DNA of 64,000 bases from a virus (taxonomy: Duplodnaviria > Caudoviricetes), in IMG/VR virus record IMGVR_UViG_3300008259_002957. One strand, given 5' to 3'. The position numbers and the translations under genes are program-made. Of this stretch, positions 5,235-8,679 are shown in pieces; position 1 is the first letter of the stretch; each line of letters opens with the position of its first letter. Below the pieces are notes generated by a model that saw only the letters and a list, made by a program, of their open reading frames with translations, was not told where the DNA came from and did not search any database.

Positions 5235-5631
5235 TTAGTTCAACCTCGTCTAGTTTTTTGTCAGGGTAAAGTTTCATTAAAAATTGTACAGTCTTCGAAC
5301 TGGAATCTGCTTTTCTATCTAGTTTAATCCATGGATGAAATTCTTTTTTTCCTGTATTGCCCGAAATGCATAGTAATTGCCATTGCAGTTTTGGATGATT
5401 TGCTCCCAGCACTGCCCAGTTCTTATTGTAATATTCATTAACTTTAAAGACTGCTAGTTCTTGTTTGTCTCTACTACCTTTAACACTACTAACATATCTA
5501 TTGAGATTCCAAAGGTCGCCTTTGATATCTTTTTGTCCGTTTTCGTCAGAGGCATCCCACAACTCTTTGATGCCCAAGTCAATTGCTGGCATCATGTCGT
5601 CGAAGAGATCTATGTATTTGTTTTTTCCCAT
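5161..5631 (-). CDS. possible clamp-loader small subunit (T4 gp62-like)
   Basis: WNLNRYVS...VNEY...HPKLQWQLL...HPWIK spacing resembles gp62; GGAGG RBS; size 156 aa. Confidence 0.45.
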   Translation of the reverse strand: MGKNKYIDLFDDMMPAIDLGIKELWDASDENGQKDIKGDLWNLNRYVSSVKGSRDKQELAVFKVNEYYNKNWAVLGANHPKLQWQLLCISGNTGKKEFHPWIKLDRKADSSSKTVQFLMKLYPDKKLDEVELIARISTKEEIKQLAKEHGYEKIDI

Positions 5632-6284
5632 AATTTCAAGTCCTCCGGTGTGTTAATCTCAATTCCATCAAATTCAACTTCAACAACACCAATTTTGATA
5701 CCGTTTTGAATCCAGCGCAATTGCTCAAGTTTCTCAGTGTCTTCTTCTACAAACTTTTTACTTACATTATAGTATGACTTAGCAATTCTATTATAACCGT
5801 AAATTCCTAAATGTCTATCACCATATGACAACGGTGCTCTTAAAAACCAATGGGCTCTGCTTCTGTTGTGAATCATTTTAACAACGTTTGGATTTTGACG
5901 ATCGTTAACATCCATAGTAGAATATGCTGTTGCAACATCCGAAAATGTTTTTAGTTCTATGTCAATTTTCATTAACATTTCAGCAGTAACATCGGGCATG
6001 TCGCCCTGTACGTTAATGTATCGATCATATTGCAATACTTCGTCAATAACTTCCATACAACGACTAGTACCGTTTTCGTGATCAGTACTGGTCATTATTA
6101 CTCGCTTTTTTGGAAGAATGTCGGCAATTTCTTGGCTATCAGTAAGCACGTAGGTTTCATATCCAAAGTTCCAACATTTATTAAACACGTGATGAATCAA
6201 TGGTTGGCCATTAAGATTGGCCAACATTTTTTTTGGAAACCTAGTACTGGCTAATCTAGCCGGAATTAAAACTGCTGTGGTCAT
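5610..6284 (-). CDS. kdsB: 3-deoxy-manno-octulosonate cytidylyltransferase (CMP-Kdo synthetase)
   Basis: IPARLASTRFPKKML, HENGTSR, INVQGDMP, HLGIYGY, EKLEQLR. Confidence 0.92.
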   Translation of the reverse strand: MTTAVLIPARLASTRFPKKMLANLNGQPLIHHVFNKCWNFGYETYVLTDSQEIADILPKKRVIMTSTDHENGTSRCMEVIDEVLQYDRYINVQGDMPDVTAEMLMKIDIELKTFSDVATAYSTMDVNDRQNPNVVKMIHNRSRAHWFLRAPLSYGDRHLGIYGYNRIAKSYYNVSKKFVEEDTEKLEQLRWIQNGIKIGVVEVEFDGIEINTPEDLKLWEKTNT

Positions 6285-6847
6285 TTATATAACACAAATA
6301 CGCCACGGCGATTCTGTGACCATGCAACTTCATTTGAACCTAGTACCGCCGGCCGTTCTTTTCCAAAACTAACTGTTTGGATCCTATTAGCATCAATACC
6401 TTTAGCAACAAGACTATCTTTGAGTGCCGATGCACGTTTTTCTCCTAGGTACAAGTTATATTCTCTTGTTCCGCGCTCATCTGCATGACCTTCGATAGTC
6501 ACAGTATATGCAGGGTAATCCTTCATAAACTTTGCTACTTCGTCAATAAGTGTATTACTTTCAGTAGTAGCAATATATCCATCATAATTGAAGAATGCAC
6601 GAGAATGCCCAATGTCATCTCTGCGTGTCATTTCATCAATAACCGACTGTAGTTCAACCATTTGTTTTTCTAAAACTTCAATCTGTGTTTGAAGTTCTGA
6701 CTTGTGGCCAGTAATGGAATTGTTTAGTTGTGTTACAGCATCGGTGATTTGATCGTTAACATAAGTCTTAATATCTTCTGGTGGTGCAGTTTGTGCAATT
6801 GCTGCGGTGCCTACAAGCATAGCAGCGACAAGTGTAAGTTTTTTCAT
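6281..6847 (-). CDS. pal: OmpA-C/Pal-type peptidoglycan-binding protein with Sec signal peptide and coiled coil
   Basis: IEGHADERGTREYNLYLGEKRA, VSFGKERP, WSQNRR; N-terminus MKKLTLVAAMLVGTAAIA-Q; no Cys (no lipobox). Confidence 0.85.
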   Translation of the reverse strand: MKKLTLVAAMLVGTAAIAQTAPPEDIKTYVNDQITDAVTQLNNSITGHKSELQTQIEVLEKQMVELQSVIDEMTRRDDIGHSRAFFNYDGYIATTESNTLIDEVAKFMKDYPAYTVTIEGHADERGTREYNLYLGEKRASALKDSLVAKGIDANRIQTVSFGKERPAVLGSNEVAWSQNRRGVFVLYK

Positions 6848-7629
6848 TGTGTTCTCCTGTTGTAATTAAAGTCGTAAATTTCTTTTACTATTTTATCAAA
6901 GTCGTTTAGTTTTATCATGTTTGGACCATCGCTGGGTGCATTGTCAGGATCAGGGTGTACTTCTAAGAAGAAGTTACTAACACCCATAGCACTGGCTGCA
7001 CGACACAGAGGCTGTACATAAGCACGATTCCCACCACTGGAGTTTCCTTGGCCGCCGGGTTTTTGAACAGCGTGTGTCGCATCGAATATCAACGGTACGT
7101 TATAATTATCAAGTATATACTGCATCCCAGTAAAGTCAACCACTAAAGTATTATATCCGAAGCTAGTTCCTCGTTCTGTTATCCAAACTTCTTTTGCAGG
7201 TTCAGTCTTACTTAAAATTCCTGCCACATCCCAAGGTGCAAGAAACTGTCCTTTTTTAATATTAACAATTTTTTTACTCTTACATGCTGCATGAATTAAA
7301 TCAGTTTGTCTACATAAAAAAGCAGGTATTTGTAGTACGTCAACTGCATCGTCATACCCCTCGGTGATCATCATAATATTAGCAGGTGAATGAACATCTG
7401 TCAATGTTTTCAAGTTGGATATGCGAGATTTTAATTCTTCAAAATCTCGCATAGTGGAATGTAAACCTTGTCCACGAATTCCGTTGATGTGTGTTCTATT
7501 TGCTTTATCAAAACTGGCTTTGAAAATATATTCAATACCGTAGTCATCGCAAACTGCTTTACAATGTTGTGCAATTTCTAAACTTTGAGCGTATGATTCG
7601 TGTTGGCATGGGCCGGCAATTATTTTCAT
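6844..7629 (-). CDS. kdsA: Kdo-8-phosphate synthase
   Basis: IAGPC, KASFDKANRT, QIPAFLCRQTDL, NIKKGQF, ERGTSFGY, DATHAVQKPG, EVHPDP...SDG. Confidence 0.95.
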   Translation of the reverse strand: MKIIAGPCQHESYAQSLEIAQHCKAVCDDYGIEYIFKASFDKANRTHINGIRGQGLHSTMRDFEELKSRISNLKTLTDVHSPANIMMITEGYDDAVDVLQIPAFLCRQTDLIHAACKSKKIVNIKKGQFLAPWDVAGILSKTEPAKEVWITERGTSFGYNTLVVDFTGMQYILDNYNVPLIFDATHAVQKPGGQGNSSGGNRAYVQPLCRAASAMGVSNFFLEVHPDPDNAPSDGPNMIKLNDFDKIVKEIYDFNYNRRTQ

Positions 7630-7630
7630 A

Positions 7631-7888
7631 TTATTTACTTTCTCTACAAATGTAGTAAATCATTTTTAATTTGTCAAGTTCGTTTTTAAGTGTCTGATGT
7701 TTTTTTGCTAGTTGTATCATCTCTTGCCATTCAGAAAATGAAAATATATTTTCCATTGCAAGCGAGTCTGCTGTACCACCTATTACCCATCTTGGTATTG
7801 TATTGTGCGGCGGATCTCTGTATCTAGCATATACTGTACCGTTTACTCGTTCGTAAATAAGTGCTGCACCCGGAATTAATTTTGTCAT
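7631..7888 (-). CDS. hypothetical protein
   Basis: 85-aa ORF tightly packed in the operon (4-nt overlap upstream). Confidence 0.7.
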   Translation of the reverse strand: MTKLIPGAALIYERVNGTVYARYRDPPHNTIPRWVIGGTADSLAMENIFSFSEWQEMIQLAKKHQTLKNELDKLKMIYYICRESK

Positions 7889-8679
7889 TTTCGCATACCA
7901 TTAAACACAGTTGTTTTAACTTTTTCGTTATCTTGGTCGATACTGTTAATCAAGTTAAAATTTAAATTATGATCGTTGAGTATTGATATTAATGCTTTGA
8001 CGTCTTTTGGCAAACACATTCCACCGTAACCTCTAAGATTATTATTTACATCTAGATATAAGTCGTTTGATTTTCCAGTAAGTATATAGGAATTTTTAAC
8101 CAAACTATAATCGCAATTAAATTTTTCACAAACTTCGTACATGATATTTGCAAATGTAATTCTAAGTGCTGCATATACATTGTTAAAGTATTTTAAAATC
8201 TCTGCTTCTGTTGGTGTTAGTTGTTTAGAATTTTTTGGTAAATGTCCGTGAGCAGAAATAATCTTTTGATAAACATAAACGTCATTTGTTCCAACAGCCA
8301 ACAGTTGATGATTATTAATAAAGTCGTCTGCTGCACAACGTTCTCTTAAAAATTCTGGAACAAAGCAAATTATTAAATTTGGATATTTTTCAATTACTTT
8401 TTCAGTAAATCCAGGAGTTACAGTACTTCTTATTGCAATAATACCGCTGTATTCTTTTTTATTCAATTCGAAAATAACTTCTTCAACAATCGATGTATTG
8501 CATTTGTTAGAATCGTCTGTGGGAGTTGGAACACATAAAAATATAATCTCAGTATCTAGTACGTTATTGAGAGTTGTATCAAATTTAATGTCATGGCTCT
8601 TAACCTGATGACCCAATAGTGTAAATCCTGCGGCATTTGCACTGCCTACAATACCCATACCAACTATTCCAATTTTCAT
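7885..8679 (-). CDS. ugd: UDP-glucose/GDP-mannose dehydrogenase family protein (short; C-terminal domain absent)
   Basis: GIVGMGIVG, FLCVPTP, STVTPG, PEFLRE, KYFNN, GYGGMCLPKD. Confidence 0.88.
   Translation of the reverse strand: MKIGIVGMGIVGSANAAGFTLLGHQVKSHDIKFDTTLNNVLDTEIIFLCVPTPTDDSNKCNTSIVEEVIFELNKKEYSGIIAIRSTVTPGFTEKVIEKYPNLIICFVPEFLRERCAADDFINNHQLLAVGTNDVYVYQKIISAHGHLPKNSKQLTPTEAEILKYFNNVYAALRITFANIMYEVCEKFNCDYSLVKNSYILTGKSNDLYLDVNNNLRGYGGMCLPKDVKALISILNDHNLNFNLINSIDQDNEKVKTTVFNGMRK

Follow-up and report, generated by a model that had tools for sequence, protein, structure and literature searches.

A phage-encoded Pal-like protein without a lipobox carries a peptide tag shared with R-body proteins

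Results

A Cys-free Pal-like gene between kdsA and kdsB

We analysed a 64,000-nucleotide stretch of Caudoviricetes DNA (IMG/VR record IMGVR_UViG_3300008259_002957), hereafter the window, in which a gene for a Pal-like protein is packed between kdsA and kdsB on the minus strand (Table 1). The pal ATG shares an ATGA with the kdsA stop (6844–6847), and the pal stop shares another with the kdsB ATG (6281–6284), in agreement with the 4-nt overlaps on both sides described in a first-pass annotation made from the sequence alone. Profile scores show that the two neighbours named there are genuine: KdsA scored 330 bits against the NF003543 cut-off of 242, and the KdsB models gave 122–174 bits, scores that lie under the models' own cut-offs with family membership unambiguous. 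Elsewhere in the window, a UDP-glucose/GDP-mannose dehydrogenase-like gene (7885–8679, minus strand) encodes only 264 aa, with the Pfam NAD-binding and central domains and no C-terminal UDP-binding domain. It is followed by an 85-aa open reading frame (ORF) without assigned function (7631–7888).

Table 1 Features of the pal locus and of related loci (positions are those of the window unless a locus is named)
Feature	Position	Strand	Basis and remarks
Pal-like gene	6281..6847	−	ORF list; 188 aa
AGGAG Shine–Dalgarno	6854..6858	−	Sequence; 7 nt 5' of the pal start, inside the kdsA 3' end
Signal peptide, residues 1–18	6794..6847	−	MKK / 15-residue hydrophobic core / A-I-A; predicted cut before Q19
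Reb-signature tag V-N-D-QITDAVTQ, residues 30–40	6728..6760	−	N31 and Q33–Q40 invariant in alignment A1
Variable coiled-coil segment, residues 41–80	6608..6727	−	AlphaFold2 helix and heptad spacing
Pal-type OmpA_C peptidoglycan-binding domain, residues 84–186	6290..6598	−	Pfam, TIGR02802, E. coli Pal alignment, Foldseek
kdsA (3-deoxy-8-phosphooctulonate synthase)	6844..7629	−	NF003543; 4-nt overlap with the pal start
kdsB (CMP-Kdo synthetase)	5610..6284	−	CTP_transf_3 (4e-29) and KdsB models; 4-nt overlap with the pal stop
SleB-type hydrolase (Hydrolase_2), own signal peptide	L002 6920–7381	+	Pfam; also L001 6913–7368 and L079 3442–3894
62-aa membrane ORF	L002 7344–7532	+	After the SleB-type hydrolase

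The pal ORF opens at the earliest start codon past an in-frame stop, so a lipobox cannot be supplied by a 5' extension, and the protein has no Cys among its 188 residues. Its N-terminus reads MKK followed by LTLVAAMLVGTAAIA, with a mean Kyte–Doolittle value of 2.23 over 15 residues; Ala then occupies positions −3 and −1, followed by QT. This A-x-A|Q-T site is kept across the family (28-sequence alignment A1), which bears out the Cys-free signal peptide ending AIA-Q of the first-pass annotation. We infer that the protein is exported by Sec and cleaved by an SPase-I-type peptidase.

From the same 28-sequence alignment, AlphaFold2 predicted a single helix spanning residues 26–80 and then a compact domain (mean pLDDT 83). 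Reading the sequence by eye, we found hydrophobic residues spaced 3–4 apart at about residues 52–73 and four apart before that, matching the heptad-rich segment of ~55 aa noticed earlier. Within residues ~52–73, I/M occupy the a positions and L the d positions, a pattern from which standard coiled-coil rules would predict a dimer or trimer. The protein probably oligomerises through this helix and perhaps through the tag as well. Bacterial Pal is a monomer (PMC7391070), and the Pals of solved structure are monomeric.

A Pal-type domain that keeps the ligand residues of Pal

The conserved Pal domain seen in the first pass is confirmed. Pfam OmpA (PF00691) matched over profile positions 1–98 of 98 with E = 3e-19 (69.6 bits against a gathering threshold of 27.2), alignment with E. 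coli Pal gave 52% identity without gaps, and the top Foldseek matches were the Pal structures 1OAP and 2HQS (TM 0.91–0.93, rmsd 1.1–1.3 Å). Scores against the curated models were 124.3 bits for the TIGR02802 Pal equivalog, marginally under its cut-off of 125.35, and 116 bits for NF008067, whose cut-off is 261. Among viral families, phrog_7897 was the best match (2.2e-24, to the OmpA_C part). That family has no assigned function, and the match pairs only residues 82–182 with the C-terminal end of a profile of 327 positions, whose N-terminal architecture differs from that of the Pal-like protein.

Residues D123, E124, R125, G126, R138, G162, K163, E164, R165, N179, R180 and R181 are invariant in the 28 aligned members. 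D123 and R125 are equivalent to Asp71 and Arg73 of Haemophilus influenzae Pal, which bind meso-diaminopimelate (mDAP) (PMC7391070). TolB occupies the same face of Pal and prevents peptidoglycan binding, the two interactions being mutually exclusive (PMC7391070). In aggregate, the sequence supports an exported, non-lipidatable peptidoglycan-binding protein that possibly binds TolB as well.

A phage family probably derived from proteobacterial Pal

A search of 5.8 billion proteins returned at least 48 full-length homologues that are 41–99% identical to the query. Such a number puts the observation far beyond chance. The A-x-A|QT signal is present in all 48 and a lipobox in none of them, and every homologue whose contig we inspected lies on a phage contig. 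The next-best matches are restricted to the C-terminal 55% of the query and are ordinary lipoprotein Pals, 61–66% identical, with Azospirillum, Oceanibaculum and Kiloniellales the named nearest bacterial sources. These alphaproteobacterial-type relatives agree with the Gram-negative host and the alphaproteobacterial leaning of the GKERP motif proposed in the first pass. Nearly all of 72 bacterial matches have a lipobox (LxAC), the exceptions being mostly short at the N-terminus. In an attempt at host inference, comparison with Reb-bearing genomes (see below) gave Pal identities of 42–57% and no lead to a host. The exact protein is recorded on 29 contigs, the longest of 297 kb, under the automatic annotation 'peptidoglycan-associated lipoprotein', of which the lipid part is wrong.

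We built a maximum-likelihood tree of the domain by quick search (121 rows, 106 columns), in which one branch has 50 of 50 phage-type rows on the same side. These rows make up two sub-clades, whose SH-aLRT values are 97 and 98, and the branch joining the two has a value of 13. The best tree suggests a single origin of the phage genes, which this weak joining branch leaves short of proof.

The N-terminal half appears to be particular to the family. N-terminal peptide patterns run against bacterial species representatives retrieved ordinary lipoprotein Pals and no relative; HMMER with residues 20–85 against 1.84 billion representatives returned family members and coiled-coil noise, with no outside relative; and an ESM Atlas search with the N-terminal part gave no usable match. 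Deposited phage genomes gave no match at the DNA level and none to the full-length protein, and the matches obtained were OmpA_C domains only, mostly in contaminated or bacterial-like records.

Several features place the gene in a phage genome. The window's TerL is 54% identical to that of the PA5oct group (Pseudomonas jumbo phage), and the window also encodes a 1,097-aa tail sheath, tail fibres, a primase and a helicase. A chimera or host fragment was ruled out by these hallmark genes together with synteny to a 330-kb phage relative (G004). The first-pass annotation had raised the concern that homologues might turn out to be normal host lipoproteins or the region a chimera; the family is instead free of lipoboxes and the region syntenic with phage G004, and its picture of a phage-encoded, non-lipidated protein composed of a helix and a Pal domain holds. 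The gene is best explained as a phage moron, that is, an accessory insert, derived from a proteobacterial pal.

The best-conserved element is a tag with a Reb signature

Mean pairwise identity within the family is 0.64 for the signal peptide, 0.54 for the linker, 0.93 for the tag (residues 31–40), 0.40 for the coil, which also has a 13-residue indel, and 0.60 for the Pal domain. The best-conserved element of the protein is thus the short tag ahead of the coil, which the first pass had overlooked. Comparison of the window (6608–6790, minus strand) with locus L005 (6055–6240) shows a divergence hot spot in the linker and coil, with a 13-residue indel, in which the embedded tag is invariant.

To take a census of the tag, we translated QITDAVTQ back into degenerate DNA and searched IMG/VR with the resulting pattern. 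The 8-mer occurs at no fewer than 120 loci, and an estimated ~240 contigs carry it (loci L020–L139 and L177–L214 among them), given that the V-N-P variant has 76 stretches in total and 38 among the 120 matches listed. The carriers, at least 120 of them, represent at least 29 unrelated phage protein classes. Those confirmed by Pfam are DUF3310, M15+GH19 and GH19+PG_binding_1 endolysins, a T7-type scaffold, Hc1, gp32, RecT, Hsp70, Hsp20, class II ribonucleotide reductase, tyrosinase and cupin; lipoproteins, multi-pass membrane proteins and small Lys-rich proteins were judged by eye. Within its carriers, the tag lies at a protein end, in a linker between domains or in a loop.

Two trivial origins of the pattern were rejected. 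A DNA element is ruled out by 86 different 24-mers among 135 sites, with all synonymous positions varying; such free synonymous variation indicates that the peptide, not the DNA, is under selection. Chance is ruled out by a control with the reversed peptide at the same degeneracy, which yielded 22 stretches in 2 protein families compared with at least 120 loci in at least 29 classes, and by flanking positions that the search pattern did not force and that are nonetheless kept across classes (V/I at −3 in 24 of 29, N at −2 in 22 of 29).

Each of nine large phage records contains exactly one copy of the tag, as does the window. At locus L045 (6469–7581, plus strand), a multi-pass membrane protein bears two tandem tags (VNDQITDAVTAPVNPQITDAVTQ). 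Chaperones on viral contigs also carry it: an Hsp70/DnaK in the C-terminal lid region (L069 15–1910, plus strand) and an Hsp20 in the N-terminal arm (L118 2724–3167, plus strand). When cultured relatives of two carriers were sought, the tag-carrying scaffold class proved related to Pelagibacter and Methylophilales podophages, in alignments that begin past the tag. Among 2,233 neighbouring ORFs we found no 'reader' gene common to the neighbourhoods of different tag classes, and the string 'ITDAVTQ' had no match in the literature searched.

The tag contains the signature of R-body proteins, in which a proline-flanked QITD or DQITD is diagnostic of Reb and has a presumed role in R-body assembly (PMC13430693, 2026). 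Pfam RebB (PF11747) matched residues 34–48 weakly, over profile positions 1–15 of 68 and with 13.6 bits against a threshold of 24. The tag pattern occurs in 4 of 401 Pseudomonadota genomes, where every match is a canonical Reb protein starting MAIPTPVNGQITDAVTQANVKVLG and the tag-bearing proteins usually form clusters of 4–5 paralogues. Full reb genes were absent from the related phage records searched, and we found no solved structure of any Reb protein.

The carrier protein seems irrelevant and the copy number is one per genome, which points to the tag as an autonomous module. We tentatively suggest that [VI]-N-[SPD]-QITDAVTQ is such a portable module, placed once per genome in any tolerant protein and serving a shared partner or self-association. 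Capping or joining of Reb-type polymers, binding of a host factor, or a homotypic 'sticker' that two proteins could not share are all possible roles. Some carriers are cytoplasmic and others exported, an argument against a partner found in a single compartment only.

Genomic context differs between related phages

The window's gene block is kept in G004 (330 kb, 93% complete), from a helicase through to cupin, kdsA, pal, kdsB and a 156-aa gene. The flanking genes of the two are 74–87% identical, whereas their Pals share only 58%, and divergence centres on the linker and coil, with 27–52% nucleotide identity and indels. The order kdsA–pal–kdsB was found in the window and G004 only. Pals of three other related records (G001–G003) are closer to that of the window (78–83% identical) and lie in a non-Kdo neighbourhood by ribonucleotide reductase. 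Because the alleles nearer to the window's sit in these non-syntenic contexts, cassette exchange of Pal alleles is suggested.

In G001–G003, a single small gene separates the Pal gene from a secreted SleB-type Hydrolase_2 and a small membrane ORF, both of which lie downstream. The hydrolase lies just 3' of the Pal gene in three related records (loci L001, L002 and L079), where it adjoins ribonucleotide reductase genes and not a late region. At locus L079 the Pal gene and a 238-aa gene stand in swapped order relative to L002, and at L115, from a divergent subgroup, the Pal gene is flanked by a T4-type DNA polymerase on one side and a clamp-like gene on the other. In G003, cupin–kdsA is ~49 kb from the Pal gene, with neither pal nor kdsB after that kdsA. 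A gene adjoining this cupin–kdsA pair (L007 2704–3306, minus strand) encodes a 200-aa protein that starts with a signal peptide, ends in ...LKLALQF and resembles a small outer-membrane beta-barrel.

With its context varying between phages, the Pal-like gene behaves as a mobile accessory insert. For the coupling between kdsA and kdsB described in the first pass, the ATGA overlaps stand, but no functional link is conserved with them, as the order is restricted to the window and G004; the coupling is a local insertion accident. A context that is not conserved offers no pointer to function. All contexts are of early or middle type, comprising replication, nucleotide and sugar metabolism. Since the replication and sugar-metabolism neighbours form one tightly packed co-directional block with pal, expression before the late structural genes is suggested.

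Discussion

During cell division, Pal fastens the outer membrane to the wall. In the phage protein, the lipoprotein signal is replaced by an SPase-I-type signal and the disordered tether of Pal by a short T/P-rich linker, the invariant tag and a variable coiled coil, while the Pal domain is kept nearly intact, including the mDAP-binding Asp/Arg pair. With moderate confidence, we propose that the product is an oligomer in the periplasm that binds peptidoglycan, is unable to tether the outer membrane and so competes with host Pal, possibly with TolB too. It would be exported by Sec, cut after A18 and left soluble in the periplasm, where the oligomer would attach with high avidity to those stem peptides of the host sacculus that are not cross-linked. 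It would fill the sites of Pal, OmpA and Lpp on peptidoglycan without itself holding the outer membrane; it is the want of an outer-membrane anchor that would make it a competitor of the host's envelope ties. As Pal's TolB site overlaps its peptidoglycan site, the protein may bind TolB too. It could form part of a wider remodelling of the envelope by the phage, alongside the Kdo pathway, sugar enzymes and, in relatives, the SleB-type hydrolase. The roles put forward in the first pass, namely competition for peptidoglycan or TolB, an effect on lysis timing and the exclusion of other phages, stay plausible.

The same domain could act chiefly on TolB. The TolB-site region, including S-Y/F-G-K-E, is invariant in the family, TolB and peptidoglycan compete for Pal (PMC7391070), and the phages appear to bring no tolB of their own, there being no TolB_N match in the related records G001–G004. 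A soluble Pal domain that mainly sequesters host TolB would shut Tol–Pal down: constriction of the outer membrane would be blocked, the envelope would leak or vesiculate, or Tol-dependent invaders would be excluded. However, TolB contacts Pal through residues that overlap with its peptidoglycan pocket; their conservation thus favours neither reading, and we regard TolB sequestration as a live rival that is nonetheless unlikely to be the main role.

A soluble protein that binds peptidoglycan might equally well strengthen the wall instead of uncoupling it. A multivalent binder might cross-brace the sacculus non-covalently or shield stem peptides, keeping the infected cell whole until lysis despite the secreted SleB-type hydrolase; the Pal gene does lie 1–2 small genes from a signal-peptide Hydrolase_2 and a small transmembrane ORF in G001–G003 and L079. 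This role in lysis timing seems less likely still, as the hydrolase is ~16 kb off or outside the stretch in the window and G004, the neighbours at L115 are a DNA polymerase and a clamp-like gene, and the Pal–hydrolase pairing adjoins ribonucleotide reductase genes with no obvious late lysis cassette.

Alternatively, the signal might stay uncleaved in the inner membrane and tie it to peptidoglycan, as in MotB, TolR and YiaD-type proteins. A hydrophobic N-terminus followed by a helix and OmpA_C does resemble MotB-type stators, and the domain has weak NCBIfam MotB/MotY matches, but the hydrophobic core is only 15 residues long and the A-x-A with its invariant Q-T is kept like a cleavage site, and these two features make an anchor improbable. 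Synteny largely refutes a partnership with the Kdo pathway, for example in scaffolding the export of a Kdo-containing glycan or its attachment: the ATGA overlaps on either side and the retention of kdsA–pal–kdsB in the 330-kb relative could make the insertion meaningful, but G003 has its pal far from cupin–kdsA, the closest alleles occupy non-Kdo contexts and the syntenic allele is the distant one, so we give this idea hardly any credence.

Competition for envelope ties, the reading we favour, leaves the invariant tag unexplained, and the key activity of the protein may lie in the tag rather than in the Pal domain. The Reb-signature tag is the more unexpected result and the one most worth following, as a sharply defined motif that links many kinds of phage protein to the poorly understood polymers of R-bodies. 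For its part, an anchor-less and probably multivalent phage Pal would be a natural dominant-negative-style probe of Tol–Pal, and evidence for active remodelling of the host envelope by giant phages with Kdo synthesis, sugar enzymes and wall hydrolases.

Comparison with known systems

The C-terminal 103 residues are like Pal (TIGR02802; 1OAP, 2HQS) in fold, in the mDAP-binding Asp/Arg and in SYGKE(R/K)P. Pal has a lipobox Cys and a lipid anchor in the outer membrane, whereas the phage protein lacks both and has a predicted SPase-I signal instead; Pal has a disordered tether in place of tag and coiled coil; and Pal belongs to a tolB–pal–cpoB operon, whereas the present gene is phage-encoded between kdsA and kdsB. 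Lpp, which is lipidated and covalently linked to mDAP, is similar in joining a helical rod to a peptidoglycan attachment.

The likeness to other envelope proteins stops at their anchors. MotB and TolR are OmpA_C-type proteins with an inner-membrane anchor, whereas the Pal-like protein has neither an inner-membrane nor a lipid anchor. Spanins and lysis-cassette membrane proteins have a stable inner-membrane helix or a lipid anchor; the Pal-like protein has neither, its sole hydrophobic stretch being the 15-residue signal core before A-x-A. With RebA and RebB it shares V-N-x-QITDAVTQ, which in canonical Reb proteins stands at the extreme N-terminus, but it lacks the remainder of the Reb domain (NVKVLGxAPAxAMG...). 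The Pal-like protein adds a new architecture to a known family and is not a strict Pal, because the domain and ligand residues are those of Pal while the lipid anchor and operon context are not and the score lies under the curated cut-off.
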